Below are positions 123 through 51,362 of a stretch of DNA of 64,000 bases, piece after piece (positions within the stretch are counted from its first letter, which is position 1; every line of letters starts with the position of its first letter). The stretch comes from Bacteroidota bacterium (lineage in GTDB: Bacteria; Bacteroidota; Bacteroidia; JAIBAJ01), in contig CANJNG010000004.1 in NCBI GenBank assembly GCA_947475205.1, positions 2,769 to 66,768 of the forward strand, in the 5' to 3' direction. The position numbers and the translations under genes were made by a program. The notes beneath the pieces were generated by a model. It was given only the letters and a program-made list of their open reading frames with translations. It had not been told where the DNA came from and ran no database searches.

Positions 123-1601
123 ATGAGTATCTCCGATTTATCTTCTTCAGCACAAATGAATAAATCATTACCCGCAAAATGGATATACTGGGTTGCGGGG
201 GTATTTATTGCACTAAACTGTGTGCTGATTGCCAATGGGTTTTTCTATGCTCCGCTTTTACCGCTTGGACTGGCCGTGATGCTACTTTCGCTTATTGCCC
301 TGGACAAGTTGGTGCTTTTTATTGTGTTTTGCACACCATTGGCCATCAATATTCCAAATATTGGTGGTGGTGTTGGATTGGCCATTCCCACCGACCCTCT
401 GCTTTTCGGTTCAATGTTGGTTTTCTTCTTAAAATTACTTTTTGAAGGAAAGTTTGACCAAAAATTGCTTTCGCACCCCGTAACTATTGCAATAATTATC
501 AATTTGGCCTGGATTGGCATTACTGCGTTTTCAAGCTCTATGCCAGTTGTTTCCTTCAAATTTTTGCTTTCGCGAATGTGGTTTGTGGTTACTTTTTATT
601 TTTTGGCGGCTCAAATGTTCAAGCAACCTAAGAATATTCAACGCTATATTTGGGTGTATGTTATTCCATTTATGGGAATTATTGGCTACACTATTTACCG
701 CCACTATACTTTTGGCTTCGACCAGCAATCGGCCAACTGGGTAATGTCGCCGTTCTATAATGACCACACGGTTTATGGTGCCATTTTGGCAATGTTTATG
801 CCTTTGTTACTCACTTATACGGTTTCCGACATCTATTCTCGCTCCACCCGAATTTACATTGCCATTGTTTTTGGAATTTATATTCTCGCACTAATTCTGT
901 CTTACACCCGTGCTGCTTGGGTGAGCCTTATTGTTGCTTTGGGGGTTTATGTTGTTATGAAACTGAGAATTCGGTTTACAACCTTACTTATTGGTGGAGC
1001 AACGGCTTTGGCAATCTTAGCTATGAGTTGGTCACAATTGCAAATGAAACTGGAAAAGAACCGTCAGGATAGTGCCGATGATTTTTCCAAACACGTTAAA
1101 AGTATTTCCAATATATCTTCCGATGCTAGTAATTTGGAACGCTTAAATCGTTGGGGCTCGGCCTTTCGAATGTTTGAACAACGACCTTTTGTGGGTTGGG
1201 GGCCGGGTACTTATGCCTTCAAATATGCTCCGTTTCAAATGAGTCAGGAAAAAACCATAATCAGCACAAATGCCGGTGATATGGGGAATGCTCATAGTGA
1301 GTATATAGGGCCCTTAGCTGAAAGTGGGGTATTTGGTATGCTTTCCATTTTACTCATCCTTATCACCTCAATCACTACCGGTATAAAGCTCTATTTTAGA
1401 CTTTCTGATCCAAAGACCAAAATGATGGTGATGGCTTTAACGCTTGGGATTATTACCTATTACATTCACGGATTCCTCAATAATTTCTTAGACACCGATA
1501 AGGCTTCCTGCCCGTTTTGGGGCTTTATTGCTATGCTCGTGATGATGGATATTACCCTCGATAAAACAACTTCGGAGGAAAAGGCTATAGAGGGAAAATA
1601 G
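123..1601 (+). CDS. O-antigen ligase (Wzy_C/WaaL-like) family polytopic membrane protein
   Basis: The ORF at 66..1601 is very hydrophobic with about 10 or more predicted TM segments. It carries the characteristic O-antigen-ligase motif region (NDHTVYGAILAMFMPLLL ... SYTRAAWVSLIVALG) and a large periplasmic loop. The first ATG in frame is at 123 and the frame opens after a stop at 27-29. Confidence 0.6.
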   Translation: MSISDLSSSAQMNKSLPAKWIYWVAGVFIALNCVLIANGFFYAPLLPLGLAVMLLSLIALDKLVLFIVFCTPLAINIPNIGGGVGLAIPTDPLLFGSMLVFFLKLLFEGKFDQKLLSHPVTIAIIINLAWIGITAFSSSMPVVSFKFLLSRMWFVVTFYFLAAQMFKQPKNIQRYIWVYVIPFMGIIGYTIYRHYTFGFDQQSANWVMSPFYNDHTVYGAILAMFMPLLLTYTVSDIYSRSTRIYIAIVFGIYILALILSYTRAAWVSLIVALGVYVVMKLRIRFTTLLIGGATALAILAMSWSQLQMKLEKNRQDSADDFSKHVKSISNISSDASNLERLNRWGSAFRMFEQRPFVGWGPGTYAFKYAPFQMSQEKTIISTNAGDMGNAHSEYIGPLAESGVFGMLSILLILITSITTGIKLYFRLSDPKTKMMVMALTLGIITYYIHGFLNNFLDTDKASCPFWGFIAMLVMMDITLDKTTSEEKAIEGK

Positions 1602-1628
1602 CGACTTATTGGCAATTCGGGAAACCCC

Positions 1629-3290
1629 TTATGTCTGAATCACCCCAACATTATACGGCTTGGTTATAGGAGCGTGGTTAGCAGCTTCTATTCCCATACT
1701 AATGTATTTGCGTGTATCAAGCGGATTGATGATAGCATCTACCCAAAGCCGTGCTGCACCATAATACGGCGAAATGGTATCGGCGTATTTTTGTTTGATT
1801 TTGTCAAGCAGAGCTGTTTCATCTTCGGGTAATATGGTTTTTCCTTTGGCTTTCAGGCTGCTTACTTCTATTTGAAGCAATGTTTTGGCGGCTTGTGCTC
1901 CTCCCATTACAGCAATTTGTGCTGATGGCCAAGCGAGCATTAGACGAGGGTCATAAGCTTTACCACACATGGCATAGTTTCCGGCTCCATAGCTGTTTCC
2001 GATTACTACCGTAAACTTAGGCACAACGCTATTCGCCATTGCATTCACCATTTTGGCTCCGTCTTTAATTATTCCGCTGTGTTCGGAACGGCTACCCACC
2101 ATAAATCCGGTTACATCGTGAAGAAACAAAAGAGGGATTTTCTTCTGGTTGCAATTCATAACAAACCGTGCAGCTTTATCGGCACTGTCGTTATAAATTA
2201 CGCCGCCCATCTGCATTTCGCCCTTCTTCGATTTCACAATCTTGCGGTCGTTGGCCACAATTCCAATTGCCCAACCTTCTATACGAGCTAACCCACAAAT
2301 AATACTCTGACCGTATTTTTCTTTGTAAGGCTCAAACGAACTTTCGTCAATCAGTCTGTCGATTATGGCTTGCATATCGTAGGCTTTGTTGCGATCATCG
2401 GGTAGGATGCCGAAAATTTCCTTGGGGTCTTTGGCAGGTTTTTGAGGCTTTTCGCGGTTAAATCCGGCTTTGTCATAATCTCCCACCTTGCTCATTATGT
2501 TTCGGATGCGTTTCAAGCAATCGTCGTCGTCTTTGCATTTATAATCTGTTACGCCCGATATTTCGCATTGAGTTGTTGCTCCTCCAAGGGTTTCGTTGTC
2601 CACATCTTCGCCAATGGCAGCTTTTACCAAATAGGAACCGGCCAGAAAGATGCTTCCGGTTTTGTCCACTATCATGGCCTCATCACTCATAATGGGAAGA
2701 TAGGCTCCTCCGGCAACGCAACTTCCCATAATGGCGGCAATTTGCAATACGCCCATCGAGCTCAGCACCGCATTGTTGCGGAATATGCGTCCGAAATGGT
2801 CTTTGTCGGCAAACACCTCGTCTTGCAAAGGCAGATAAACTCCTGCACTATCAACAAGATATATAATTGGTAAACGGTTTTCGATGGCAATTTCCTGAGC
2901 CCTGAGATTCTTTTTTGCGGTGATGGGAAACCAGGCTCCGGCTTTTACTGTGGCATCGTTAGCCACCACTATGCATTGGCGTTTGCTAACATATCCAATC
3001 ATAACCACTACGCCACCACCGGGGCAGCCGCCGTGTTCGGCATACATTCCTTCTCCGGCCAATGCTCCAATCTCGATGCGTTGACTATCGGGGTCGAGTA
3101 GCTTTTCGATGCGTTCGCGAGCGGTGAGTTTTCCTTTCTCGTGTTCTTTATCTATCCGTGTTTTTCCGCCGCCTAAGCCTACTTTCTCCAATCTTTTTTC
3201 CAATTGGCTGGCGAGCATTCGGTTTGCATCTTCGTTTTTATTGAATGTAATGTCCATTGATTTTTTGAGTGGGCGAAGATAGGGGTTCAA
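1629..3290 (-). CDS. Acyl-CoA carboxylase carboxyltransferase beta subunit (methylcrotonoyl-/propionyl-CoA carboxylase beta-like)
   Basis: 553 aa. Carboxyltransferase motifs are present: GKLTARERIEKLLDP, VVANDATVKAGAWFP, FGRIFRNNAVLSS, AIMGSCVAGGAYLP and GGATTQCEISGVTD, with a second CT half-domain (MQMGGVIYNDSADKAARFV...). These resemble MccB/PccB proteins. Confidence 0.8.
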   Translation of the reverse strand: MNPYLRPLKKSMDITFNKNEDANRMLASQLEKRLEKVGLGGGKTRIDKEHEKGKLTARERIEKLLDPDSQRIEIGALAGEGMYAEHGGCPGGGVVVMIGYVSKRQCIVVANDATVKAGAWFPITAKKNLRAQEIAIENRLPIIYLVDSAGVYLPLQDEVFADKDHFGRIFRNNAVLSSMGVLQIAAIMGSCVAGGAYLPIMSDEAMIVDKTGSIFLAGSYLVKAAIGEDVDNETLGGATTQCEISGVTDYKCKDDDDCLKRIRNIMSKVGDYDKAGFNREKPQKPAKDPKEIFGILPDDRNKAYDMQAIIDRLIDESSFEPYKEKYGQSIICGLARIEGWAIGIVANDRKIVKSKKGEMQMGGVIYNDSADKAARFVMNCNQKKIPLLFLHDVTGFMVGSRSEHSGIIKDGAKMVNAMANSVVPKFTVVIGNSYGAGNYAMCGKAYDPRLMLAWPSAQIAVMGGAQAAKTLLQIEVSSLKAKGKTILPEDETALLDKIKQKYADTISPYYGAARLWVDAIINPLDTRKYISMGIEAANHAPITKPYNVGVIQT

Positions 3291-3414
3291 TTACGAACGG
3301 CAAAGCCCTCAACGGAGTTAATTACGAATTGCGATTTTGGATGTGTAGCACGAAAATTTTCGTTCAAACAAAAATTGAATTTTCCTTTAAGAGGAAATAT
3401 CGCCATTAAGAGAG

Positions 3415-4398
3415 CTAAACACTTTTCATCCTCAACCACAGCAGCAACTGTACCCCAAACAGTACACTGGCCAATAGAATATGCACAGGTTGCATTGCTG
3501 CCGGAAAATCAAAATAAACAAGGGTTATTCCCGATAGGATTTCAACGCCTATTATGCCCATTATCCATTTCGATAATGGTTCACTGATAGGTTTTAGTTT
3601 CCAAAACAAAAAGCCGTTAAAACCCAGCACAAGTAGGGAGAAACTACGGTGCAGATAAAACTTCCAGTCTAACTGGGCTATCCAAATACTACGAAGGCCA
3701 TAATCATTCTGGTAAGAAATAACATCAATCTCTTTGCGGACTTCGGTTCCCAAATATACTTGAATAATGGAAAGTGATAGTGCAGCTAAGCAAATGGCCT
3801 TTAGGTGGCTTGGAACTTCTACCGTTAATGGGGAAATTATATGAAGCATTTTTATCAATATCCCAAATATAACGAAAGCCAACAACATGTGTATGGTGAT
3901 GGTCCCGGGCAGCAGATTGGTGGAAACCACAATGGAACCCAGCCAACCCTGAAACAAAGTGATTATGAATACGGCCAATGCCCAGCCAAAGATGGCTTTG
4001 AACTCATTTCTTCGTTTAAAGGAAATCCAAAGCAGAGCAAAAAGCAAGGGGCCGAGTACTACTCCACAAAGGCGATTGGCATACTCTATCCAAGCTTTTG
4101 TTACGTTAAAATCGGTTTCGGTTTTTACCGATGGGTCATTTACGATTAGGTAGGCTAAATTGGTAAACCCCGCAGCGGATAAATATTTGGCCAACTTCTC
4201 ATTTTTCTGAATGCGTTTGGCAATGTATATATCCTTGTAGTTGGCCGGTAATTGGCTGGCATCGGTAGGAGGGGCTAATTGTCCGAAGCATTTAGGCCAA
4301 TCGGGACAACCCATTCCGGAGCCGGTAGTGCGAACCACACTTCCTGCCAAAATGATTAAATAGGTATTAATAATGCAGGCTATGATGAGTTTTTTCAT
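3415..4398 (-). CDS. ctaA: Heme A synthase (COX15/CtaA family)
   Basis: The N-terminus reads SVVRTTGSGMGCPDWPKCFG, the Cys-containing CtaA signature. There are about 8 TM helices and conserved His residues in the paired halves. It lies next to the caa3 oxidase genes. Confidence 0.8.
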   Translation of the reverse strand: MKKLIIACIINTYLIILAGSVVRTTGSGMGCPDWPKCFGQLAPPTDASQLPANYKDIYIAKRIQKNEKLAKYLSAAGFTNLAYLIVNDPSVKTETDFNVTKAWIEYANRLCGVVLGPLLFALLWISFKRRNEFKAIFGWALAVFIITLFQGWLGSIVVSTNLLPGTITIHMLLAFVIFGILIKMLHIISPLTVEVPSHLKAICLAALSLSIIQVYLGTEVRKEIDVISYQNDYGLRSIWIAQLDWKFYLHRSFSLLVLGFNGFLFWKLKPISEPLSKWIMGIIGVEILSGITLVYFDFPAAMQPVHILLASVLFGVQLLLWLRMKSV

Positions 4399-17279: not shown

Positions 17280-20200
17280 TTATGCTTCGTTCTCTTCTTT
17301 TGTGCGGTTACGTACTTTAGTCAAATACCATACGTTTGGTTGAATACCTATTTCTTCCAACATGTGATATCCTCGTTCGTCTTTTGATGATTTAGCCACA
17401 TTGGTTTCTGCATCGTTAAGGTCGCCAAACGAAATCGCGTTTGTTGGACAAGCTGATTGACATGCAGTAGTGATTTCGCCATCTGTAACCTTACGGCTTT
17501 CTTTCTTAGCTCTTAGTTTACCTGATTGGATACGGTGAACGCACATTGAGCATTTTTCCATAACTCCACGTGAACGAACAGTTACATCAGGATTGATAAC
17601 CATTTTCGCCAAATCATCATTGAAGTTGAATGGGAACTGTTCGTTATCAAAATATTTGAAGTAGTTGAAACGACGAACTTTGTATGGACAGTTGTTTGCA
17701 CAATATCTGGTTCCGATACAGCGGTTGTAAGTCATTTGGTTCAAGCCTTCATTGCTGTGTGTAGTTGCAGCAACCGGACAAACTGTTTCGCAAGGTGCGT
17801 GATTGCAGTGTTGACACATCAAAGGCTGGAATACAACTGAAGGATTCTCTTCAGCATCTTCCATCGCTAAGAACTTATCAATAGCACCAACTCCTTCTTT
17901 CTCCGCTCTTTCTTCTGTCATTGCAGAAGTGTAATAACGGTCAATACGAATCCAGTGCATTTCGCGGCTACGACGAACTTCGTCTTTACCAACTACAGCA
18001 ACGTTGTTTTCGCTTGTGCAACTTGTTACGCAAGAACCGCAACCGATACAGGAATTCAAGTCAATGGTCATTCCCCAACGATGTCCACGGTCATTGGGAT
18101 GGTCGTCCCAAAGGTTTACTTTAGTTGGAGCTTGTTTACCGTGGTTTGTAGTTTGGATAAACAAATCAGGATTGCCTGATTTAGGGTCCTTAATATAATC
18201 AGTAAGGATTGTTTCCTTTACCATATCACGGCCCATCAAAGTGTGGTGGGTTTGTGTTGCAGCTACAGGATATTGTTCTCCTGTTTTGGTAACACTAACG
18301 TTTAGGTTTTGATAATCAAAGAAACCTCCGGAGGTACTTACTAAGTCGAAAGCATTAACTCCGATTCCATTTCCGGTTTTACCGGCTTTGGTACGGCCAT
18401 AACCTAAAGCTATGGATATAGTTCCAGGTTTTTGTCCCGGCTGAGGAATTGCAGGAAGTTTAACTGTTTTACCATTCACGGTAACACTTACAACATCGGC
18501 TTGCTCCCAGTTATCTCCTTTCTCGAACCATGTTAAGCCAAGTTTCTTCATGTCCGAAACGGCCATTGCCACATAGTTGTCCCAAGTAAGTTTAGAGATA
18601 GGATCGGGGAACTCTTGCAACCATGGGTTGTTTGCTTGATTTCCATCACCTAATCCTGTTTTTACATAAATAACTAATTCTGTATTTCCACCATTATCTT
18701 TAGTGGCTTTAGCGGCAGCAGCGTTTAAGTCAGCCACATTGGTTGCAGCAGTAGCAGCCAAAGCAGGAGTTTCGAAAACACCGCCTTGCAGCGAGCGAAC
18801 CCAGAATTCTTCTGCACCAAAACCTTCAGTAGATTTAGGCTGCAAAGTTGTTTGCCAAGTTGATTTTAGGAAAGAATGATAATCACCACCCAAATCAGCC
18901 CAAGCGATAAGACTATCTTGGAATTGACGAGTTTTGAAAAGTGGAGCAATGGTAGGCTGAGTTAAACTGTATTGTCCAACTTTAGGCTCAGCATCATCCC
19001 AGCTTTCTAGGTAGTGATTAGATGGAGCTAAATATTTGGTTAATGAACCTGTTTCATCTGCACGGTCGGCAAAAGAAACGCTTAATTCAACTTTAGAAAC
19101 TGCATCAGCAAAACCGCTTAAGGTATAAGCAGGATTAACTCCTTGAACAAACAAAGCACTGATTCCACCGGCTTTCATTTCATTCAATAAAGCGATAACC
19201 TTAGTGTCGTCACCTTGACGGATGTTCAAATAATTATCTAGGTCAATGGTATTGCCATAGTTTCCTAAAAGAGCATTGATTCCGTTTACAACTGTTTGTA
19301 CGCTTGGGTCGTTTGAACCAGCTACAACGATTGTGTTTCCTTTATTTTCCCACAATTCGTTTGCGGCTTTAGCAATTGCTTTATCGCCTTCGGTAGAACC
19401 GGAAGGAAGAGAAGAAGCACCGGCTTTCTTAGCAATTTCGTTGTAAAGATTTACAACGGCTTTGTTTATTTGAGAAGCTTTTAGAGAAACTCGGATATCG
19501 GCATTTGAACCTGTCAATGATAGAGCAGTTTCAAATTGGAAGTGGCGGCTCATGGCTTTGTTCTTCGGGTTACGGGTTACACCGTAAGCCTTAGCGAACT
19601 TCACACCACTTAACCAAGTATTCAAGAAATCGGCTCCGAAGCTTACAACAACTTTAGCTTTTTCGAAGTAATAATCTGGAACTACTGCTTTGCCGAAACT
19701 AGCTTGATTTGCATTTATAATCCCTGAATAAGAAATAGGATCATACGTTACAACTTCGGTAGTCGGATATTTAGCTTTGAACTGAGCAAGAATTGCTTTT
19801 GTAGAAGGGCTAATAATTGTAGAAGTCAAGAAACGGATTTTTCCGCCTTTAGCAGCAATCGCCGCTAGTTTCTCTTTTACTTCTTTATCTAAAGTATCCC
19901 AAGTGATTTGACGACCTGCAGCCTCAGCTCCTTTAGCACGACCGCTGTCATATAAACCAAGTACGGATGAGTTAACACGAGAGTTAATCCCGCCTTTGGT
20001 AACGTTAGAAATTTTGTTTCCTTCAATTTTGATAGGACGGCCTTCGCGAACTTTTACTAAAATGCTTGCATAGTCGTTGCTATCATAGAATGTAGAAGCA
20101 TACCAGTTTGCAACACCGGGAGTGATCTCTTCGGGTTTGTTCAAATAAGGAATAGCTCTGTTTACAGGGGTTTCGCAAGCAGCAAGCGTTGCAGCGGCAG

Positions 20201-20378
20201 TTGAAAACCCTAAAAACTTAAGGAAGTCGCGGCGGTTTGATGACGTGTCACCAATATTGGCATTGCCAAGAAGTTCTTCAACTTTAGCGTTTTCAGGAAA
20301 CTCAGCTTCTACTGACTGTTTAAACTCAGCTGTTGGATTGAGTTCTGCGTGTCCTTTCCAGTATCTTTTATTGCTCAT
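17280..20378 (-). CDS. actB: Alternative complex III subunit ActB (molybdopterin-oxidoreductase-like + 4x[4Fe-4S] ferredoxin fusion)
   Basis: 1032 aa. It has a Tat signal ([20 protein letters not shown]) and an MopB-like N-terminal half. The C-terminal half carries multiple CxxCxxCxxxCP ferredoxin motifs ([41 protein letters not shown]...). Confidence 0.85.
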
Positions 20379-20417
20379 CGTTTGGATTATGCAAGTAATA
20401 TTTGGGAATTAATAAAA

Positions 20418-21728
20418 TTAGTGATGGCACTTGCCACATTCTGTTCCACCCATGGTTTCAACGGTAACTTTTTCCATTTTATCAAGGGTTTTAGTGTTAT
20501 GTTCTTTAGCGTATTTGTTGAAACGGTGGCTCATTTCGGTATAGTAACCGTTGCCTTCCATTTGAACTTGGGTTTCGCGGTGACAGTTGATACACCATCC
20601 CATTGTAAGTGGTGCATTTTGTTTCACCACGGCCATTGAATCCACCGCTCCGTGACACGATTTGCATTCAACCTTACCTACGGAAACGTGTTGTTGGTGG
20701 CTAAAGTAAACGTGATCGGGAAGGGTATGCACCTTTATCCATTTGATGGGTTTGGTGTTTGAACCGTAAGTTTGTGTAGCAGGGTTATAATCTAATGCGT
20801 TGTAGATTTTAGCAATCTCTGTTTTGCCGGTTGTTGGTCCTTCTTGAATAGCTTTGTGGCAATTCATACAAACGTTAGCCGAAGGAATACCGGCATGTTT
20901 GCTACGTTCAACACCTGAGTGACAATAAACGCAATTGATTTTGTTTTTCCCGGCGTGGATTTCGTGAGAGAACTTAATTGGTTGTTCGGGTTGGTAGCCT
21001 TGATAAACACCGATGCCTAACAAAGCATCCCAACCTATTTTGCTAATCCAAAGTATTCCGATGAATCCACCTAATGCAACAACTTTTTTGTTGTTGGCCA
21101 TCCAATATTTAACGCCATCCCATCCTGTGTGGTGAACCGGAGTAGGCAAACCGTTTTTGTCGGCAACTAAAGTTTCAAGGTTACGCTTGATTTGGCTTAG
21201 GAAGATAACTAATACTAAGAAGATAGCCGAAAGGCCGAATAATACATAGTTAAGTGTGTTGTCGGGAGCGGGTTTTTCGGTTGCTACTACTGCTCCGGCA
21301 GGGCCTGTTGTGGCTACTGGTGCAGGAGGGGCTACTATATAATCAACAACTGCTTTGATTTCATCATCGCTGAGGTATTCAAAAACGGTCATTGCCGCTT
21401 TGTTGTTCTCATTGAAAATCTTTACCGCATAAGCATCGCCCGAAGCAATAAGCTTGGTATTGTTTTTTACCCAGTTAAACAACCATTCGTTGGCTGGTTT
21501 TGGCACACGGTCGGCAATGCCTTTAAGACCGGGTCCGGTGAGCTTCTGGTCGGTGATTTTATGGCATGATGCACAATTTGCTTTGAAAATTGCGGCTCCA
21601 TCAGCAGCTGCAAAAGCCGACGATTGAGCAAAAACGCCTAAAACTACCGTGAAAAGAAGTAAATGTTTCCTAAAACCGAAATAGTCGTTACAGTTTGAAG
21701 TCATTGATTTTGCTGATGTTTTTAGCAT
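20418..21728 (-). CDS. actA: Alternative complex III subunit ActA (multiheme cytochrome c with N-terminal extra monoheme domain)
   Basis: It has six CxxCH motifs: CASCH, CVYCH, CMNCH, CKSCH, CINCH and CGKCH. A TM anchor separates the N-terminal monoheme domain from the pentaheme domain. It is the first gene of the cluster. Confidence 0.8.
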   Translation of the reverse strand: MLKTSAKSMTSNCNDYFGFRKHLLLFTVVLGVFAQSSAFAAADGAAIFKANCASCHKITDQKLTGPGLKGIADRVPKPANEWLFNWVKNNTKLIASGDAYAVKIFNENNKAAMTVFEYLSDDEIKAVVDYIVAPPAPVATTGPAGAVVATEKPAPDNTLNYVLFGLSAIFLVLVIFLSQIKRNLETLVADKNGLPTPVHHTGWDGVKYWMANNKKVVALGGFIGILWISKIGWDALLGIGVYQGYQPEQPIKFSHEIHAGKNKINCVYCHSGVERSKHAGIPSANVCMNCHKAIQEGPTTGKTEIAKIYNALDYNPATQTYGSNTKPIKWIKVHTLPDHVYFSHQQHVSVGKVECKSCHGAVDSMAVVKQNAPLTMGWCINCHRETQVQMEGNGYYTEMSHRFNKYAKEHNTKTLDKMEKVTVETMGGTECGKCHH

Positions 21729-22087
21729 TATACTAGTCCGAACACTGCCTTTGAATGCCGCCGCAAAAATAGAAACGCAGGATAATGGCGTTTAACTTTT
21801 TTTACGGATTGGGTAATTTAGAATGGTTCTAAATAGCGAGGTGGTTTGAGAAGAGAAATATTGCAGGGAAATTGAGGTGCTTTTGTGCCCTGACAGCCTT
21901 AAATTACGAATGGGACGCACGATTTTACTGATGTGCTGATTTGAAGACTGATTTTATGTAGGCCGAGAACATTGGATACGAGTCATTGGGGGCATATATG
22001 TTTTAAAGGAGAATGAGTGCGAAAGCATCCACAAAAAAAGCGAAGCACAATGCTTCGCTTTTTCCTATCAAAAAATACAATTACGAT

Positions 22088-23044
22088 TTAAAAGAACCGT
22101 TTCAAGGTGAACTCACCGTCTTGGTCGGTGTCGTTTCGTACAATAAAGTAACGGTAACCGTTATTCATTACCTGACTGCCCATGCAAGTGCTTTGACTAT
22201 GGCCGGTGATAGAAAAGAAGGGCGGACCGGTGAATGGTTCGGTGCGGGAAAGGCCAACACCAAAGTTAAGATCTGCATCGCCGTGGCTTGTTATCTCCAT
22301 TTTGTCGTTTGCTTTAAACGTGTGCACAAACACCACCTTCCAGGACTGCCTAGGCACAGTCACATCAAATGAAGTTTGCTTCTTGTTCATAATGTTTTCT
22401 ACATCGAAATAACCCAATAGCGAAGCAAGGTTATTGATAGCCGTTTTAATTAATGAGGCGTAGGCATCCATCAAACCATCGGCCATAAGTAAGCGTTGGG
22501 TTTCAACAGCAGCCGACGAAACCTCGGTGCCAGTAATGTCCATGCCCGATTCTTCGATGGCATTTTCATAACTAGTCAGAAATGCGGTAACCGTTACTTT
22601 CAGTGCAGCAAGGTTAGCATCGGTGCCAATGGCCTCTAAAAGAGTGGTTACAGCACTCAGGCGGTCTTGATGTCCGCCTTTTTGAAACGGTTTGCGGCGG
22701 TGGGGCAGCAACTCTTTGTAGCGGGTGCTGGGCACATCATAATGTTGCTGAATGGCGGCATCCCATTGGCGGATATACGTGCCGCTCAGCAACTTTTCAA
22801 GGGCTAATACGGCATCGGTACTGCTTATGTGGCCTTCGTCGCTGCTAAACCAAGCATCGTAAACATTTTTGAAGGCCAAATAAAGCGGATGATACACATT
22901 GTAGATAGCCAGAATTGCCGCATTGGCAATTTGACCGTGCAGAGCCAAATCGGTGTATTTGGCAATTGCCATCATTTTTAAATAATTCCCTCTTGTTACA
23001 ATTTCAAAAGGGTTGCGGAGAAATGCCCAAATTAAAGCTGCCAT
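22088..23044 (-). CDS. Hypothetical protein (no recognisable domain; C-terminal ...FTLKRFF)
   Basis: 318-aa ORF with no internal stops. It is transcribed divergently from the 42-bp tandem-repeat promoter region. No motif was recognised. Confidence 0.45.
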   Translation of the reverse strand: MAALIWAFLRNPFEIVTRGNYLKMMAIAKYTDLALHGQIANAAILAIYNVYHPLYLAFKNVYDAWFSSDEGHISSTDAVLALEKLLSGTYIRQWDAAIQQHYDVPSTRYKELLPHRRKPFQKGGHQDRLSAVTTLLEAIGTDANLAALKVTVTAFLTSYENAIEESGMDITGTEVSSAAVETQRLLMADGLMDAYASLIKTAINNLASLLGYFDVENIMNKKQTSFDVTVPRQSWKVVFVHTFKANDKMEITSHGDADLNFGVGLSRTEPFTGPPFFSITGHSQSTCMGSQVMNNGYRYFIVRNDTDQDGEFTLKRFF

Positions 23045-23220
23045 AATTTCTAGTTTTTAAAAGGTTAGTAAATATTGAATTATGACTGTAAAATTAAAAA
23101 CCCACTAAATTGCAAACGTTAAATTTTATTAACAAAATATTAACTGCTAGGAAACCCCAATCTGGGCATTATGTTCCCGCCCGTCTACAACCTAAAACCG
23201 ACCGGTAATTTCATATCCAA

Positions 23221-23472
23221 ACACGTGTTTTGCCAAGGTTCTATATGTAGAATGATGCCCGGACACGTGTTTTGCCAAGGTTCTATATGTGGAATGATGC
23301 CCGGACACGTGTTTTGCCAAGGTTCTACATGTAGAATGATGCCCGGACACGTGTTTTGCCAAGGTTCTATATGTAGAATGATGCCCGGACACATGTTTTG
23401 CCAAGGTTCTATAGTTAGAATGATGTCCGGACACGTGTTTTGCCAAGGTTCTATATGTGGAATGATGCTCGA
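23221..23472. repeat. Tandem array, 42-bp unit x6, each unit carrying ACACGTGT and TTCTA-N4-TAGAA palindromes
   Basis: Units start at 23221, 23263, 23305, 23347, 23389 and 23431. The consensus is ACACGTGTTTTGCCAAGGTTCTATATGTAGAATGATGCCCGG with 1-3 substitutions per unit. The ORFs at 23171..23545 and on the complementary strand are repeat artefacts. Confidence 0.9.
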
Positions 23473-23709
23473 TAAGTTTATTTTGCTAAAGGGTAGGTGT
23501 GATATTTATAGAATGGGATTATTCGGGGGTATTTGGATGGGGTAGGATGTGCGATGGGGTAGAGGGTTCAGATTTTATTTGTGGGATATTTAAAAATAGG
23601 CCTTAGACCTACAACGCGAAAGGGCAAGGTTGATAAGCTTTGCTCAGCGAAGTTTTGGGTTATCTAGGAGTGAGCTATAGATTTTATTGCATTTCCTATT
23701 TTTGCTCCA

Positions 23710-24341
23710 TGAAATTTACCATTGAAAACCTACACCATAAAATCGAAGATTTTTTGGGTGACGATAACGTTACCTTTCATTTCGATATTCATATTTCGGA
23801 ACCGGAAGAGTTTTTGATAAAAAACTATCCCTTCCATTATCATGAACTCACACACTATCTGCAAGAAGCCAATCCGGCCTTGCATGCTTATTTAAGTAAG
23901 ATTCGCAAGGATATTGGGGGTTGGGGGCCAAAGGAAAATAAAATATTCGAGGCCCTGGAACCCGACACTCTTAATGAAGTTTATAAGTATGTGGAAGAGT
24001 GCCTCCTTAAACGAGATTGGCAATTGGTATATGAACGAGAACAGAAATGGAAGAAAATGGCACTTGAAGCTAAGGTGGAAGAGCACAAGAAAATAGAGAA
24101 GGTTTTTGATGATCTTAGTGAGGGTATGCCCAATGCTTCAATGATGCAGCGAAAGTTTTACCGTTTTGCTGAAACTGTGGAAAAGCAAATTCAGGCAACT
24201 GCCGTTGATATTTACCCCGAACTAATGAATGGAAATGCCGAGCAAATGGACGAGTTCCGATATTTATTCAGCCGCGAAGTAAGCTCGATGCATGAAAGGC
24301 TTTCTAAACATTTAGAAAGCATAAGGAAGGCAAATACATGA
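23710..24341 (+). CDS. Hypothetical protein (charged, predicted helical/coiled-coil)
   Basis: The ORF at 23640..24341 has an internal Met at 23710 (MKFTIENLHHK...). It is rich in E/K heptad-like segments. No known domain was recognised. Confidence 0.45.
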
Positions 24342-24425
24342 CGAGAGAAGAGGCAATTGGAACAAGTCGAATTGGCAGTGTGTAATGCAATATAAAAGGG
24401 TTTATTGTCTAACCCATTTAAATAC

Positions 24426-24482
24426 AATTTTTCCACACCTTTGCCGCCCCCAATGAGCAAAGCCACCACCGCAACGGAAACG
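24426..24482 (+). repeat. Duplicate of the mutS promoter-proximal/5' coding segment (about 55 bp, ~93% identical to 25574-25630)
   Basis: AATTTTTCCACACCTTTGCCGCCCCCAATGAGCAAAGCCACCACCGCAACGGAAAC at 24426-24482 matches AATTTTTCCACACCTTTGCCACCCCAATGAGCAAAGCCACCACCGCAGCGGAAAC at the authentic mutS start. The copy encodes MSKATTATETKG followed by a stop. Confidence 0.85.
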
Positions 24483-24487
24483 AAGGG

Positions 24488-25336
24488 TTAATGCTGTACG
24501 CTTATTCTTGCATTTATGTGGCGATGACCTACTGTTAGTTTCAGTAAGTAAATGCCATTAGCCAAATTGCCGGTATTAAAGTCCACTTCGGTGATTCCTG
24601 ATGCCATAAATACATTATTTGTCGCCGAAATAGATTGCCCCAAACAGTTTTCTAAGCTATAAGATACATCATTAGGTTTGTCTAAGTTCAACCGAAGTTT
24701 GGTTGCCTCGTTAGCTGGATTTGGGAACAAATCATAACTAAAATCAAGATCCATGATTTCGGTAGTGCTATTAGGCGATATTCCGCACTTGCCAGCAATA
24801 TAATCTCTTAAATTTACTTCATTGGTAAGTGAATTGCTTAGTTTGTAAAGTTTCTTATCCTCGCAAACCACAAATATTGCAGGTAAACCATACGTTTGTC
24901 CGGGCTGCACGAATTTCAGAACAACAGAATTAGAATTTGCGGGATCGCAAATCGGATGGGTAGTCCCCGTAATCCAATCGCCTTGAGTATTTGTACCCGT
25001 TCCTTGCAAATCCGCCATATCTGTTGAATTATCCACTTCGTAAAGAAACACTTCTGCATCTTTTACTTCACTTGTTCCCGTAGGTCCATATAGATTATAG
25101 TATCTATCCAGCACTTCGCTTTGATGATACCCCCAACATATTCCGCACCAAGTAGCCGACAAATCAATAATGACATGTTTGCCTGCATTTGTCATAGTAA
25201 ACAGGTCGTGGCTTACGTTGTTTAAATCGGTAAGTGTAGCGGTAGTAGAAATTGCGGTTCCGTCCGGATAATACACCTGAGATCTAGAAGTGAAGGCTGT
25301 GGCTAAAATAGCCAATAAGAGTAGGTTTTTTTTCAT
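24488..25336 (-). CDS. Secreted thioredoxin-like protein with T9SS C-terminal sorting domain
   Basis: It has a signal peptide (MKKNLLLLAILATAFTSRSQ) and a CxxC motif in thioredoxin-like context (DLSATWCGICWGYH). The C-terminal Por secretion tail reads NGIYLLKLTVGHRHINARISVQH. Confidence 0.65.
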   Translation of the reverse strand: MKKNLLLLAILATAFTSRSQVYYPDGTAISTTATLTDLNNVSHDLFTMTNAGKHVIIDLSATWCGICWGYHQSEVLDRYYNLYGPTGTSEVKDAEVFLYEVDNSTDMADLQGTGTNTQGDWITGTTHPICDPANSNSVVLKFVQPGQTYGLPAIFVVCEDKKLYKLSNSLTNEVNLRDYIAGKCGISPNSTTEIMDLDFSYDLFPNPANEATKLRLNLDKPNDVSYSLENCLGQSISATNNVFMASGITEVDFNTGNLANGIYLLKLTVGHRHINARISVQH

Positions 25337-25601
25337 GACGAATATTTTCGTTTGGTTAATATAGACTACAAATATAGTATATCTGTTAAATATAAAGTTA
25401 GCATCCGTTGAAATAAATTCCTCTTATGGTAACTTTTCATCCAAATTTTAGACGCCTGAAGATTAGCCCCCGACCTATACTGACTCCAATCAAAGGAAGT
25501 TTCGGCTACGAAATTTGCTAATTGATATTAACGTTTGGTTCATAAACAATGGGGTAATTGTCATACTTTTCATCCAATTTTTCCACACCTTTGCCACCCC
25601 A

Positions 25602-28226
25602 ATGAGCAAAGCCACCACCGCAGCGGAAACCCCGCTGATGAAGCAATACAACGGCATTAAGTCCAAACATCCCGATGCGATATTGCTGTTTAGGGTAGGC
25701 GATTTCTACGAAACATTTGGCGAAGATGCCGTGAAGGCTTCCAAGGTGCTGGGCATCGTGCTTACCAAGCGGGGAAGTGGTTCGGCTACCGAGGTGGCTT
25801 TGGCCGGATTTCCCTACCACTCCCTCGAAACGTATTTGCCGAAATTGGTTCGGGCAGGCTATCGGGTGGCGGTGTGTGACCAGTTAGAAGATCCCAAGTT
25901 TACCAAAACCATTGTGAAGCGGGGCGTCACCGAAATGGTAACGCCGGGGGTAACGTTTAATGACCATATACTCGAAGCTAAATCGAACAACTTTTTGGCA
26001 GCAGTGTATTTTGACAAAACACAGTTCGGGCTTGCTTTTCTCGATGTATCCACCGGTGAGTTTCTAGCCGGAGCGGGAGATAAAGAATATGCCGACAAGT
26101 TGCTGCAAAGCTTCCGGCCCGGAGAAATTCTTTTCCCTAAACAAAACAAGAACATTTTCAGGGAAAACTTTGGCGGCATCAGCTCTGAGTTTGGGCTGGA
26201 AGATTGGGTGTTCTCCGACGATTATTCGCAAGAACTGCTGCTCAAGCATTTCGCCACCAAATCGCTAAAAGGTTTTGGGTTTGAAAAGAACGGATTGCAT
26301 ACCATAGCGGCGGGTGCGGCACTGCATTATTTGTCTGAAACCCGCCACGACAGGCTGAAACATATCACGAAGCTTCAGCTTATCCAAGAAGAGAATTTCG
26401 TTTGGCTGGATAAGTTCACGATTCGTAACCTCGAAATATTTGGTACAAACACACCAGGAGGAACAGCCTTGGTGGATATTCTGGATAATACATGCACGCC
26501 GATGGGTGGCCGCTTGCTGAAACGCTGGGTGGCATTGCCGCTCAAAAACCGCAAGGCGATAGAAGACCGATTGAATGCGGTTTCAGAACTGAAGGACAAT
26601 GCAGAGCTGAAAGATAATCTGCAAAAGCACCTGTCTTCGGTAGGCGATTTGGAAAGGCTGATGTCGAAGATTGCGGCAGCACGCATCAATCCCCGCGAGG
26701 TAGTGCAACTCCGAAGAACCTTAGAATTGCTTGTTCCGATAAAGGAACTGTGCCTGTCGGCCAACTCCGCTCCGCTCAAACATATAGGCGAACAACTGAA
26801 CCCCTGCCTTTCTATGGTGGAGAAGATTTTCAATGAGGTGCAAGAAGACCCACCGGCATTGGTAAACAAAGGCGGAGTGATAAAAACGGGTGTGAATGCC
26901 GAGTTGGACGAACTACGAGCAATAAGCTCAGCAGGGAAAGATTACCTGCTGCAAGTGCAGCAACGCGAAGCCCTCAAAACGGGCATTACCTCGCTAAAGG
27001 TGGCCTACAATCAGGTGTTTGGTTACTATATTGAAGTGACCAACGCCCACAAAAGTAGAGTGCCCGAAGAATGGGTGCGGAAGCAAACCCTCACCGGTGC
27101 CGAACGCTATATAACCGAGGAGCTAAAAGAATACGAAACCAAGATATTGGGGGCAGAAGAGAAGATTCTGGGCTTGGAAACCCGTCTCTTCGAAGAGTTG
27201 GTTACCGCCTTGGGCGAATACACCGAAGCGGTGCAATTGGATGCTACCTTGGTGGCAAGGCTCGACTGTTTGGTGAACTTTGCCCAAATAGCTATTGACA
27301 ACAACTACGCAAAACCACACCTGAACGATGGCAACATCCTTTCTATAAAACAGGCACGTCACCCGGTTATTGAAAAGCTATTGGCGGTGGGCGAAGAGTA
27401 TGTGCCGAATGATATTCTGCTCGACCCCGAAGATTGTCAGGTGATTATTATGACGGGGCCCAATATGTCGGGTAAATCTGCCTTGCTTCGGCAAACTGCT
27501 TTGGTGGTTATCATGGCTCAGATTGGCTGCTTTGTGCCTGCCCAAAGTGCCGAGATAGGCGTGGTGGACAAAATCTTCACTCGTGTGGGAGCGTCAGACA
27601 ACATTAGTTCGGGAGAGAGTACGTTTATGGTGGAAATGAACGAAACGGCCAGCATCCTGAATAACCTAACACCGAAATCCTTGGTAATATTGGACGAGAT
27701 AGGCCGAGGAACCAGCACCTACGATGGTATTTCTATTGCCTGGGCTATTACGGAATTCCTGCACGAACATCCTTCGGCACGGGCCAAAACAATGTTTGCT
27801 ACTCACTACCACGAACTGAACGAGATGGAAAAGTCCCTTAGCCGTGTGCGGAACTTCTCCATTGCAATAAAGGAGATAAACAACAAGATTATCTTTTTGC
27901 GAAAGCTAATTGCAGGTGGTAGCGAACATAGCTTCGGGATACACGTTGCCCGCATGGCCGGAATGCCGCCCAAGGTGATAGAGCGTGCCAACCAAATACT
28001 TTCGCACCTCGAAAAAGACCATAGTTCGGAAGTCCTAACGGATAGTAAACCTTCCACGGGCAAAAAGGCCGCCCAGCCCGATTACCAGCTTAGCTTCTTC
28101 CAACTCGACGACCCGGTTCTTTCGCAAATCAAAGACGAAATATTGAAAACGGACATCAACACCTTAACTCCTGTGGAGGCTTTGATGAAGCTGAATGAGA
28201 TTAAGAAGGTGCTGTTGGGGAAATGA
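25602..28226 (+). CDS. mutS: DNA mismatch repair protein MutS
   Basis: The ATG at 25602 gives [37 protein letters not shown]... Walker A is GPNMSGKS, and the [12 protein letters not shown] and HYHEL motifs are present. Length is about 875 aa. Confidence 0.92.
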
Positions 28227-50025: not shown

Positions 50026-50733
50026 CTACTTGTATTTTTCTTGAATTTCTTTGGCCAGAGATTTTATAGTTTGTTCCACTACCTTACTTGCGTCAACTTC
50101 TAAAGCAACTTCACCAATGGCGTCAATCAATTCAAAATAAAAGTCGTCTTTTCCTGTAAGCCTATGCCAAAAATCTTTCCCAACAAAAACAGGATATGTA
50201 TTTCCGATTTTTTTATAATGTGAGCTAAGTTCTGCTGCTTCGCCATATACCACACAAACTATCATATCGTTGATGCCAACATTTATATTATTGGTTCTGG
50301 CAAGGCTACGAACGCCATTAAAGTGATTAATTATGGTAGTTACATCGTCATGATTGATTGTGTTTGGCCCTGCTTTTAACTGACAATATTTTTTCCTTCC
50401 GTCAATTGCATCTATAAATTCAATGTCGATTCCTTGAGTAGTAGAACCTAAGCCCTGAAATAAGGTGCTGATTAAACTCTGAATCTTCATTCCAAAGGAA
50501 GTATTAATTGAAGAGCCTAAAATTCGTGGCAGAACAAGAGCCCGGGCAATGCTTTCCGCATCATCGTTCCCTGTAAGGAAATTTGCCAGGTATTTAAATA
50601 AAAAGGGGTTAACATTGTATTCCGACAGTTTACTTGCTCTTTTGCAAGCACCGTCAATATGGCTTTGTACAATTTCATTTCTGAAAAACGTTTTTGCATT
50701 TTCAATTATTTGTTTTCTCTGACTATTGTTCAT
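50026..50733 (-). CDS. Putative type II restriction endonuclease (cognate of the C5-MTase)
   Basis: 235-aa ORF convergent with the MTase gene, with stop codons 1 bp apart. It has a candidate PD-(D/E)xK-like segment (GIDIEFIDAIDGRKKYCQLK). The region is low in GC. Confidence 0.45.
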   Translation of the reverse strand: MNNSQRKQIIENAKTFFRNEIVQSHIDGACKRASKLSEYNVNPFLFKYLANFLTGNDDAESIARALVLPRILGSSINTSFGMKIQSLISTLFQGLGSTTQGIDIEFIDAIDGRKKYCQLKAGPNTINHDDVTTIINHFNGVRSLARTNNINVGINDMIVCVVYGEAAELSSHYKKIGNTYPVFVGKDFWHRLTGKDDFYFELIDAIGEVALEVDASKVVEQTIKSLAKEIQEKYK

Positions 50734-50943: not shown

Positions 50944-50984
<41 letters not shown>

Positions 50985-51040
50985 TAAGCTATTAAATTCC
51001 AAAAAAATTTTTTCCGGGTTTAACGAAGGGAAGCAAACAG

Positions 51041-51300
51041 GGTCTATTTCTGTCCGAAGTAAGGCTATTTCCATCCGAAATAGGGCTGTTTCCATTCGAA
51101 ATAGGGCTGTTTCCATCCGAAACAGGGCTGTTTCCGTCCGAAATAGGGCTATTTCCATCCGAAATAGGGCTATTTCCATCCGAAGTAAGGCTATTTCCAT
51201 CCGAAACAGGGCTGTTTCCATCCGAAACAGGGCTGTTTCCATCCGAAATAGGGCTGTTTCCATCCGAAATAGGGCTGTTTCCATCCGAAATAGGTCTATT
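51041..51300. repeat. 21-bp minisatellite, about 12 units (consensus GGCTGTTTCCATCCGAAATAG)
   Basis: Units differ at 1-3 positions (ATTT vs GTTT, AATAG vs AACAG vs AGTAA). The ORFs 50911..51306 (+) and 50982..51284/50992..51312 (-) are repeat artefacts. Confidence 0.9.
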
Positions 51301-51362
51301 TTCTAAACTCAAAACTTCGTTTACATCTTAAATATTTATATTAATCCCTAAAAATCAATACA

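Follow-up and report, generated by a model that had tools for sequence, protein, structure and literature searches.

A tandem array of six 42-bp units (23221..23472, no strand) in the 64,000-nucleotide stretch of Bacteroidota DNA analysed here, hereafter the window, belongs to the adjacent minus-strand gene for a 318-aa protein (22088..23044), which is a member of a large uncharacterised Bacteroidota family, and not to a divergent gene pair. Arrays of the same period lie upstream of every family member examined, and the sequence comparisons suggest that the array is most likely an in-phase row of binding sites controlling the family gene.

Structure of the tandem array

The array was delimited by Tandem Repeats Finder (TRF) and by a unit scan. 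TRF reported a repeat at 23221..23468 with a period of 42, 5.9 copies, 93% matches, no indels and a score of 447, while scanning with the consensus unit (ACACGTGTTTTGCCAAGGTTCTATATGTAGAATGATGCCCGG on the plus strand) yielded units starting at 23221, 23263, 23305, 23347, 23389 and 23431, all in register and with 0, 1, 1, 0, 4 and 3 mismatches to the consensus, respectively (Hamming scan). The head-to-tail array of six 42-bp units claimed in the preliminary description is therefore real. When up to 3 mismatches were permitted, the consensus unit matched five times in the window versus 0 expected, and the copies follow one another head to tail without spacers, as in a tandem repeat or minisatellite, above chance. 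Independent assemblies (L003 and L004/L008) contained the identical six units. Taken alone, a 42-mer is not unusually rich in palindromes (P about 0.16-0.23 versus shuffled units); the features beyond chance expectation are the repetition in tandem and the fact that related loci conserve the period and one dyad.

On its distal side the array is bordered by a G/T-rich flank, or tail (23473..23557, no strand). In an alternative arrangement of the locus (L007), which has one unit, that unit is followed by a diverged version of the tail (72% over 170 bp). No terminal inverted repeats were found around the array, its flanks having weak 10-11 nt pairs only, and the exact unit core (CRTGTTTTGCCAAGGTTCTA) had 0 matches in 185,579 representative genomes. 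A CRISPR array was rejected because the units abut without unique spacers and are 93% alike along the whole length.

Long open reading frames (ORFs) run through the array as had been described (23171..23545 on the plus strand, 23185..23394 and 23192..23446 on the minus strand), raising the alternatives of a translated product with 14-residue repeats (42 bp being 14 codons) or of a structured RNA. In the window array three of the six frames lack stop codons, and public gene callers have annotated ORFs in three related arrays (180 aa at L015, 132 aa at L023 and 122 aa at L156). However, any 42-mer has about half of its frames free of stop codons by chance, the open frames and strands vary by array, and the resulting peptides are unrelated even where the adjacent proteins are 44-52% identical. 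Moreover, every unit difference in the window alters an amino acid in the long plus-strand frame, the 41-bp periods of some related arrays (L150, L153 and L156) are not divisible by three, and the 124-aa ORF product had no Pfam match above the cut-off. As regards RNA, Rfam 15 gave 0 matches at the gathering score in the whole window, and loop-less perfect palindromes make poor hairpins. We thus consider either form of product extremely improbable; open frames that differ and peptides that are unrelated between arrays bear out the earlier view that the array is non-coding and its ORFs are repeat artefacts.

One recurrent dyad per unit

The core dyad, ACA-NN-TGT (first of six copies at 23221..23228, no strand), is shared with the arrays of distant relatives and shows low variability. 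It reads ACACGTGT at 23221, 23263, 23305, 23347 and 23431 and ACACATGT at 23389 (unit 5), and hence occurs once per unit in all six units of the window array when ACACATGT is allowed. In the orientation of the gene it is preceded by GGCAAAAC, giving AAAACACGTGT. All five matches of ACACGTGT in the window, where 0.39 were expected, are inside the array. A second dyad, TTCTA-N4-TAGAA (23239..23252, no strand), is perfect in units 1, 3, 4 and 5 only, units 2 and 6 having a TGGAA half-site instead. Both palindromes had been described as present in each unit, making 12 dyad sites; this stands for the 8-bp palindrome in five of the six units and fails for TTCTA-N4-TAGAA, found in four of six, so that the perfect dyads number nine (5 + 4) rather than 12. 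A counterpart of the second dyad 21 bp from the core was not significant in related arrays (combined P = 0.73). Without conservation there, this dyad is probably incidental, and the idea that each unit is built around two different palindromes found no support.

Unit sequences are otherwise mostly unrelated between arrays, and the dyad that recurs across them is ACA-NN-TGT, often as AAACA-NN-TGTTT. Among the 12 arrays found by searching with the protein first (see below), ACANNTGT occurs once per unit in six (chance expectation about 1% per 42-mer) and CANNTG is present in 10. The exact 8-mer is missing from five of the 12 arrays (near-variants in L015, L021 and L022, GCACGTGC in L150), and L153 and L156 have wholly different dyads, so the core is frequent and not universal.

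Within arrays, ACA and TGT deviate from the consensus in 2.6% of cells versus 11.4% for the remaining unit (Fisher P = 5e-9; n = 13 arrays, a test biased by the choice of seven of them for three exact cores). The half-sites thus vary about four times less than the other positions, and variation peaks at the central NN (21% of cells). The six protein-first arrays alone had the same pattern, with about 1 mismatch in 186 core cells versus about 10% elsewhere. A core that recurs in distant arrays and appears to be selectively preserved favours the earlier suggestion that the array may be an in-phase set of dyads for a DNA-binding factor. Outside the array, ACANNTGT is not enriched in the window (9 sites versus about 17 expected in all), and there is consequently no sign here of a wider regulon.

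Linkage of the array to one gene family

We identified 12 independent family members with upstream DNA by a protein-first search (the window, L015, L021, L022, L023, L025, L028, L030, L150, L152, L153 and L156; 24-52% identity to the window's 318-aa protein). All 12 have a tandem array with a period of 41-42 bp, or higher-order units of 84 or 126 bp. The distance from the array end to the start codon downstream of it is 50-310 bp, and the period is 41 bp in L150, L153 and L156. Conversely, a genome-wide array-first scan for three copies of ACANNTGT at 42-bp spacing returned 117 loci, at seven of which a family gene is immediately 3' of the array, forming the second largest flanking-gene cluster. 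The same module, a 41-42 bp array ending 50-310 bp upstream of a family gene, was accordingly found at 12/12 protein-first and seven further, array-first loci. No further 41/42-bp arrays were found in 127 kb of family loci, in which the remaining repeats have periods of 7-36. Beyond the core, the unit sequence diverges together with the protein.

The array had been described as lying in a divergent promoter. We found no support for this: the plus-strand neighbour, a 210-aa orphan gene (23709..24341, its start being 23709 and not 23710 as first given), is not a conserved partner, whereas 12/12 relatives have the array linked to their copy of the 318-aa gene. One distant homologue of the 210-aa gene was found, with no array at its locus. 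Across 18 loci no conserved partner gene was found apart from frequent T9SS-cargo genes, nor was a transcription-factor gene conserved beside the module. The window array is chromosomal, in the interval between an alternative complex III operon and mutS. Distal to it is a terminator-like hairpin (23596..23612, minus strand), a consensus match only in a region where the number of such sites is not above shuffle expectation; it might shield both array and gene against incoming transcription.

The 318-aa family gene is monocistronic, and the 176-bp spacer between the array and its start codon (23045..23220, minus strand) is presumably the site of its core promoter and 5' UTR. An exact TAnnTTTG box is absent from 23045..23220, where the closest sequence is AACGTTTG. 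Eight of 17 related loci do have such a box in the corresponding spacer, at a distance of 40-107 nt from the ATG, and in these relatives the array is upstream of the predicted -7 boxes.

The 318-aa protein and possible self-recognition

The 318-aa family comprises 946 clusters at 50% identity and is unannotated. Searches of Pfam, NCBIfam, PHROGs and PADLOC with the flanking proteins and distant family members gave no match, as did a PDB profile search with the family. The AF2 model (pLDDT 93.6) consists of long helical hairpins in the N-terminal part and a beta-sandwich in the C-terminal part. Foldseek with this model against PDB and BFVD gave only weak hits to Tc-toxin shells and, for the C-terminal domain, generic jelly-roll hits. 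Comparison by hhalign with DUF6261, helix + FN3 proteins and two other array-associated proteins detected no significant homology, and no relatives were found in viral contigs.

Given that array and gene are co-inherited at 12/12 loci while every other neighbour changes, we questioned whether the 318-aa protein could itself assemble on its own array, whether for autoregulation, in a cognate pairing of the centromere or iteron type, or to build a nucleoprotein structure, with the lineage-specific part of the unit giving a specificity that co-evolves with the protein. Consistent with this, the non-core unit sequence diverges along with the protein, the format (a period of about 42 bp, one dyad per unit and 6-13 copies) is like that of F sopC, and the long helical hairpins of the predicted model would suit oligomerisation. 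However, neither sequence nor structure searches detected HTH, RHH or any other recognisable DNA-binding fold in the family or a resemblance of the 318-aa protein to ParB, SopB or Rep, a partner NTPase is absent, and the setting is chromosomal, from the alternative complex III operon to mutS. Furthermore, it is the core dyad that the family's arrays conserve, as would suit a conserved reader, but a conserved host factor explains this equally well. We therefore regard self-recognition as unlikely.

A bolder version, which we rate as quite unlikely, would be a new, self-contained and co-evolving protein-DNA system, in which the 318-aa protein (with a new DNA-binding mode), or a complex that it nucleates, polymerises on the array. 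One subunit or dimer would then be placed per four helical turns in a nucleoprotein structure of about 6-8 units, whose role might extend beyond autoregulation to, for example, scaffolding anchored on the chromosome, heritable switching of expression or mobility as a single-gene module. A further class of comparable build, in which helix + FN3-like proteins of about 200 aa follow 21/42-bp arrays, may belong to the same phenomenon; one example is in the window (51053..51980).

Copy number variation and rearrangement

Unit number at the window locus is 1 (L007), 6 (window, L003 and L004), 6.5 (L002) or 7.5 (L001), and a paralogous locus (P0003) has 7 versus 4 units; the copy number is thus variable between strains, as had been anticipated. 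Changes occur by whole units or by higher-order blocks, for example of 126 bp. The arrangement with one unit retains the same gene, so a long array is not indispensable. Contingency repeats are short units that alter promoter spacing or frame, whereas this unit is 42 bp long and lies 176 bp upstream of the ATG. The additional suggestion of a contingency promoter is a poor fit, given the unit length, the position upstream of the predicted core promoter and the maintenance of arrays of 4-13 units across deep divergence.

Two contigs from one sample show that the array is a rearrangement breakpoint between strains. L007 is 100% identical to the window over 19088..23261 and continues into other DNA after unit 1, while L001 is 99.8% identical over 23221..27341 and has other DNA on its left. 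In this population, U1-type units are present in two or more genomic contexts (based on metagenome contigs), with one copy in the 64-kb window. In the proposed reading, arrays of the same type at separate genomic places recombine as a by-product, which would alter unit number and generate large rearrangements.

These dynamics are also what a selfish or neutral minisatellite or MITE-like repeat would produce, one that is functionless, persists by unequal recombination and occasional spread, and has only incidental promoter effects. Units of the U1 type in at least two contexts (the left flank differing in L001 and L002, the right flank in L007), a distal tail common to both contexts, the many contigs that end within the array, and the 84/126-bp higher-order units and unit-number changes typical of satellites all agree with it. 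It also has a precedent in BrickBuilt, a 23-nt repeat with leader and tail that is intergenic and has bidirectional promoter activity (PMC4596501). However, a neutral repeat would not retain a 41-42 bp period, a position by one gene family and 3-13 copies despite complete sequence turnover, and the format is kept in relatives down to about 25% protein identity. The core half-sites are depleted of variation, terminal inverted repeats do not flank the array, and the exact unit core is missing from the 185,579 representative genomes. Overall, we find a functionless repeat distinctly unlikely.

The L007 and L001 junctions also match an inversion between two inverted array copies, such as would arise if the array promoted programmed rearrangement in the manner of a shufflon or invertible-promoter-like switch. 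Yet a recombinase gene was found beside the module at 0 loci, the exchange partners are ordinary homologous repeats for which RecA-type recombination suffices, and most family loci keep one stable arrangement across samples (L015-L019, L025-L027), making a dedicated inversion site very improbable.

Proposed mechanism and implications

We propose, with roughly even confidence, that the array regulates the 318-aa gene in cis from its upstream position, forming one module with it and serving as an in-phase operator or enhancer for a putative dimeric factor. This proposal builds on the linkage of array and gene, the conserved 41-42 bp period, the core protected from variation and the position upstream of predicted promoters. 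Each 42-bp unit would have one functional dyad, ACA-NN-TGT with A/T-rich shoulders (AAAACA-NN-TGT...), and since 42 bp corresponds to four helical turns, the six dyads would be presented on one face of the DNA. A sequence-specific dimeric DNA-binding protein could then occupy every dyad, with adjacent dimers interacting along that face in a cooperative filament, by wrapping or by looping, and the outcome would be repression or activation of the promoter in the 176 bp between array and ATG. The ACA-NN-TGT core has the form of operators of the TetR, CopY/BlaI and Crp/PrfA types, and we infer protein binding by a dimer of one of these kinds, its cooperativity and an effect on transcription in one direction or the other.

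If the proposal is true, a Bacteroidota family of around a thousand clusters, unannotated in Pfam, NCBIfam, PHROGs, PADLOC and PDB, would carry a built-in and recognisable cis element with a period fixed at four helical turns, a dyad that is conserved and a remainder that varies, offering an experimental handle on the family. It would also be a naturally occurring case of operators multimerised within a homogenised tandem repeat of a bacterial chromosome. In practical terms, such arrays break short-read assemblies, yield spurious public gene calls and mark the breakpoints of large rearrangements between strains.

Comparison with known systems

The centromere of the F plasmid, sopC, has 12 units of 43 bp, with an inverted repeat in each, bound by SopB. 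Like sopC, parC of R1 and the iterons of plasmid Rep systems, the window array consists of head-to-tail direct repeats near four helical turns, with one inverted repeat per unit, and adjoins the gene it would serve; in all of these, relatives keep the format although their array sequences differ. A repeat array with inverted repeats, as expected of a partition centromere, is therefore present. In contrast to those systems, there is no nearby gene for a ParA/SopA-type ATPase, ParB/SopB, ParR or Rep, the linked protein lacks a known DNA-binding fold, and the array accompanies a single monocistronic gene in chromosomal housekeeping DNA. A partition centromere was rejected because partition NTPase and centromere-binding genes are not adjacent and the array is not on a separately segregating replicon, and a Rep-iteron origin because the 318-aa protein could be assigned neither to Rep or winged-helix proteins nor to any other known family or fold.

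Promoter contingency loci, such as those of Neisseria and Haemophilus, have units of 1-9 bp, and slippage alters the -35/-10 spacing or the reading frame. Strain-to-strain variation in repeat number, which could tune expression, is common to both; the differences are the 42-bp unit, the location upstream of the core promoter and the changes by whole units or 126-bp blocks.

The core dyad itself resembles operators of dimeric HTH regulators, including the CopY/CopR 'cop box' (TACANNTGTA; PMC7253601), the PrfA box (TTAACANNTGTTAA; PMC5359189), the tTtAAACaNNtGTTT motif upstream of Shewanella lipid catabolism genes (PMC2532739) and the sites of a Sulfurovum TetR-family gene, which has four copies of GAACANNTGTTC upstream of itself, 39-42 bp apart. 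These share half-sites of 3-5 bp around a free central dinucleotide with the window array, and in the Sulfurovum case also the 42-bp centre-to-centre spacing of several sites. Such operators differ in having 1-4 sites in unique sequence and a regulator that is identified and either adjacent or controlling, whereas arrays of the window type place 6-13 sites on a homogenised tandem repeat, and their binder is putative.

The literature on 42-bp or 41-bp tandem repeats in bacteria gave nothing relevant, and the sole comparison found was BrickBuilt of Porphyromonas gingivalis, a 23-nt minisatellite with leader and tail that is always intergenic, 49-591 nt from genes, and for which bidirectional promoter activity has been reported (PMC4596501). 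Both are intergenic, spacer-less minisatellites of Bacteroidota with non-repeat leader and tail flanks; BrickBuilt has more than one genomic copy, as the array probably does. BrickBuilt, however, is restricted to one species, where it forms 19 dispersed copies with small inverted-repeat ends and a unit of 23 nt rather than 41-42, and it has no reported tie to one gene family, whereas the array type described here is tied to a single family phylum-wide.

The array and its flanking genes

The proposed tandem array is real: six head-to-tail 42-bp units occupy 23221..23472, with consensus-unit matches in register at 23221, 23263, 23305, 23347, 23389 and 23431 (0, 1, 1, 0, 4 and 3 mismatches, respectively), and Tandem Repeats Finder reported a period of 42, 5.9 copies, 93% matches and no indels. 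The preliminary description had placed two palindromes in every unit, giving 12 dyad sites. This was an overstatement, as ACACGTGT is intact in five of six units (unit 5 reads ACACATGT) and TTCTA-N4-TAGAA in four (units 2 and 6 read TGGAA). All five copies of ACACGTGT in the 64-kb window lie inside the array, versus 0.39 expected in the window by chance. The second palindrome did not stand up as part of a paired design: it does not exceed chance in the window unit (P about 0.2), and across 14 unit types a second dyad showed neither excess nor preferred position (combined P = 0.73).

The array is flanked by ORFs of 318 aa (22088..23044, minus strand) and 210 aa (23709..24341, plus strand), neither of which matched Pfam or NCBIfam. 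On this Bacteroidota chromosome they lie between alternative complex III genes and a T9SS-sorted protein plus mutS. The plus-strand neighbour had been recognised earlier, with its start (23710) off by one. The accompanying idea of a divergent promoter was not borne out. The array belongs to the 318-aa gene rather than to a divergent pair, because no neighbours are conserved around the family gene across the loci compared (it stands alone), the only homologue of the 210-aa gene is distant and has no array, and at L015, the locus of a relative, the array has just another gene's terminator on its far side.

T9SS-sorted proteins are encoded close to the family gene at 11 or more of 18 loci (window 24488..25336, minus strand; L015 882..3134; L023 5148..6656; L028 5316..6830; L038 5883..6806; L067 1213..2646; plus others), which, as an informal impression, is commoner than we would expect. 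Por_Secre_tail or CHU_C genes lie within a few kb of the family gene, and some are the divergent neighbour across the array.

A large protein family preceded by arrays

In a word-indexed search the 318-aa protein had just three clusters of close homologues. Profile searching of 1.84 billion representatives returned 946 clusters (424 at E <= 1e-30), nearly all of 313-325 aa, so the family is large. Pfam, PHROGs, NCBIfam and PADLOC gave no assignment for any member scanned. The N-terminal motif M..W.Y..NPF.N.T is nearly invariant, and the 318-aa protein has no signal peptide-like N-terminus. Its AlphaFold2 model (52 family sequences; pLDDT 93.6, pTM 0.67) is confident: 42-99 and 143-201 each form a helix of about 58 residues, surrounded by shorter ones, and 225-316 an eight-stranded beta-sandwich. 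Foldseek against PDB and BFVD matched only the sandwich (PirA, endospore appendage subunits and phage decoration proteins), besides a weak match to the helical shell of Tc toxins, and a PDB profile search found nothing. No recognisable DNA-binding fold emerged from the model, Foldseek or the PDB profile search; that the family protein itself reads its dyads is an unlikely possibility.

Genomic context was taken for all relatives for which it could be obtained, with selection by protein only. An array of period 41-42 bp (or 126 bp, 3 x 42) precedes the family gene in all 12 of these protein-first loci, window included, ending 50-310 bp before the start codon. At L015 (P0003, 44% identical to the window protein), 42 bp x 7.2 at 3458..3761 and a second array of 42 bp x 3.2 at 3219..3354 precede a gene starting at 3868. 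The other relatives carry 42 bp x 2.7 up to a contig end (L021; P0002, 52% identity), 42 bp x 4.0 plus a scaffold gap (L022; P0004, 39% identity), 42 bp x 7.1 (L023, P0157), 126 bp x 2.2 (L025, P0156), 42 bp x 6.2 (L028, P0158), 42 bp x 3.2 up to a contig end (L030, P0154), 41 bp x 13.0 (L150), 42 bp x 8.2 (L152), 41 bp x 8.7 (L153) and 41 bp x 6.2 (L156; P0159, with a different C-terminal domain). The same 127 kb of loci held no further period-41/42 repeats, the other repeats there being of 7-36 bp. Uninformative family contigs start just 110-170 bp before the gene, where a break of the assembly within a repeat would put their ends. At L150, a metagenome contig, the 1.2 kb upstream of the array (381..1625) is packed with 18-23-bp tandem repeats sharing GCCCTGTCTCTAC.

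The 41-bp periods, the unrelated peptides of different arrays and the absence of Rfam matches (none anywhere in the window) contradict coding and RNA readings of the array. The ORF through the window array (23171..23545, plus strand, 124 aa) is, as initially suggested, almost certainly a repeat artefact of stop-free units. Public gene calls run through the arrays of relatives too (L015 3241..3783, minus, 180 aa; L023 3557..3955, minus, 132 aa; L156 191..559, plus, 122 aa), and such artefacts would inflate counts of 'hypothetical proteins'.

Period, core and promoter position

Unit sequences are mostly unalignable between loci, and the 41-42 bp period is kept where the proteins share only about 25-35% identity. 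A purely selfish minisatellite, similar to BrickBuilt (PMC4596501), would explain why the array is dispersed, has a tail and breaks assemblies, but would leave the conserved period, position and core unexplained; with units fully replaced over such divergence, a drifting satellite is not expected to hold a 41-42 bp length. ACA-NN-TGT occurs once per unit in six of the 12 protein-first arrays (random 42-mer chance about 1%), as ACACGTGT in the window and L152, ACAACTGT/ACAGTTGT in L023, ACAAGTGT/ACAACTGT in L025, ACAGTTGT in L028 and ACACTTGT in L030, and CANNTG is present in 10 of 12. The shoulders of the core are often A/T runs (AAAACA-NN-TGTTTT), and beyond it the window units can be aligned with those of L030 and L023 (ACANNTGT-NN-CGTGCCATTC), in identical orientation relative to the gene.

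Variation within arrays suggests that the ACA/TGT half-sites are under selective constraint. Across 13 arrays, the six half-site positions deviated from the array consensus in 2.6% of cells and the remaining 34 positions in 11.4% (Fisher P = 5e-9), a comparison biased in that seven of the 13 had been found by core search; the six protein-first arrays alone gave about one deviation in 186 core cells versus about 10% elsewhere. The central NN was the most variable position (21%). Such a pattern, constant half-sites around a freely varying central dinucleotide, typically marks a site for a dimeric protein.

The canonical Bacteroidota -7 box consensus, TAnnTTTG, occurs between array and ATG in eight of 17 loci, 40-107 nt before the ATG; the window spacer holds near-matches only. 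Judged by these predicted boxes, the arrays would lie on the upstream side of the core promoter, the place from which activator or repressor arrays work, and a 5' leader is disfavoured.

Copy number and rearrangement between strains

Fourteen lake-metagenome contigs were retrieved from public assemblies via both array-flanking proteins. Three independent contigs (L003 and L004/L008) carry an array identical to that of the window, with six units each, and many others end within it. Copy number, proposed to be variable, does differ between strains (1, 6, 6.5 and 7.5 units). L007, a 114-kb contig, is 100% identical to 19088..23261, a stretch that takes in the 318-aa gene and unit 1; beyond it come a G/T-rich distal flank in diverged form (72% over 170 bp) and then unrelated genes. 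The L007 junction reflects real reads, because it spans less than one assembly k-mer. From the array rightwards, L001 and L002 are 99.7-99.8% identical to the window (L001: 23221..27341), with 7.5 and 6.5 units. Left of these units is another 42-bp array (ACTGAACCACATGGTTTAGCCAAAATTGTAATTACAATGGCA x 5.4) whose sequence differs; beyond it, 44 bp remain of the 3' end of the 318-aa gene, followed by a different neighbour. The array is a rearrangement breakpoint. The A-array-C and D-array-B junctions are the pattern expected from inversion between two inverted array copies, which may have produced them; a programmed inversion is unlikely, as no recombinase gene lies beside the module in any locus.

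Unit-number polymorphism by unequal exchange has clean evidence at the paralogous or orthologous P0003 locus: seven units in two samples and four in one (L015 3458..3761 versus L020 81..265), the alleles differing by exactly one 126-bp higher-order block, with support from k-mers unique to the short allele. In one Chitinophagaceae MAG, two contigs (L093 1..210 and L120 1..257) start inside an L152-type 42-bp array (CATCTACACGTGTCGGAAG...) in opposite orientations, with the family gene on neither, which suggests more than one locus of this array type in that genome.

Other array-gene pairs

An array-first scan for ACANNTGT cores, three of them spaced 42 bp apart, covered one genome per species and found at least 117 loci, and 103 among the matches listed are tandem arrays of period 21, 42 or 63. 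Among these matches, a 318-aa family member starts 48-262 bp downstream of the array in seven loci, all MAGs labelled Bacteroidales, Bacteroidia or Bacteroidetes, making the family the second largest flanking-gene cluster after a Sulfurovum TetR-family regulator. This Sulfurovum/Sulfurovaceae gene (217 aa) has four GAACANNTGTTC palindromes 39-42 bp apart in unique, non-repeated upstream DNA (L056 2133..2300, also L062, L068, L082, L109, L114, L133 and L142), and its upstream region resembles an autoregulated promoter with several operators at the four-turn spacing of the arrays.

The window holds a second array-gene pair (50945..51980): a 7-bp x 5.7 GGTCAGC repeat (50945..50984), a 21-bp x 11.9 array of TCCGAAATAGGGCTGTTTCCA (51053..51301) and, about 60 bp downstream, a 205-aa orphan (51363..51980) without a Pfam match, helical in its N-terminal half and FN3-like at the C-terminal end. 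Directly adjoining this repeat-rich intergenic region is the gene for an EcoO109I-type type II restriction endonuclease (PF14511, E = 1e-34; 50026..50733, minus strand). Mutually homologous helix + FN3 proteins of 200-220 aa, built like the orphan, stand behind 21/42-bp arrays in Pedobacter planticolens (L126), Bacteroidia (L102), Bacteroidota (L146) and Chitinophagales (L065); hhalign gave no significant homology to the 318-aa family (E = 0.025). A Prevotellaceae MAG has a 42-bp x 4.0 array with a ACAAATGT core and, 152 bp downstream, a gene for DUF6261 (L081 189..959, minus strand; PF19775, E = 4e-37), a further uncharacterised family of helical Bacteroidota proteins.

Interpretation and comparison with known systems

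The evidence best supports the array as the upstream control region of the family gene. In-phase dyad operators would line up in it, one every four helical turns, for a dimeric factor that could interact along one DNA face; the version in which a host regulator or an unspecified binder reads the dyads has about an even chance. A self-contained protein-DNA system of a new type is a minority possibility. Operator dyads, iteron-like arrays and minisatellites are components of known kinds. Their combination, in a phylum-wide protein family with each member behind a 41-42-bp array with a shared core, looks new; no description of the module was found in the searchable literature, whose incomplete coverage makes this weak evidence. 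Operators with an ACA-NN-TGT core are known for CopY/CopR (PMC7253601) and PrfA (PMC5359189), and in Shewanella a tTtAAACaNNtGTTT motif is the mark of lipid catabolism genes (PMC2532739). The spacing recurs in the Sulfurovum TetR promoter, a conventional and apparently autoregulated one whose sites lie in unique DNA, whereas the arrays are unusual in setting operators on a homogenised tandem repeat, kept beside one gene family across a phylum.
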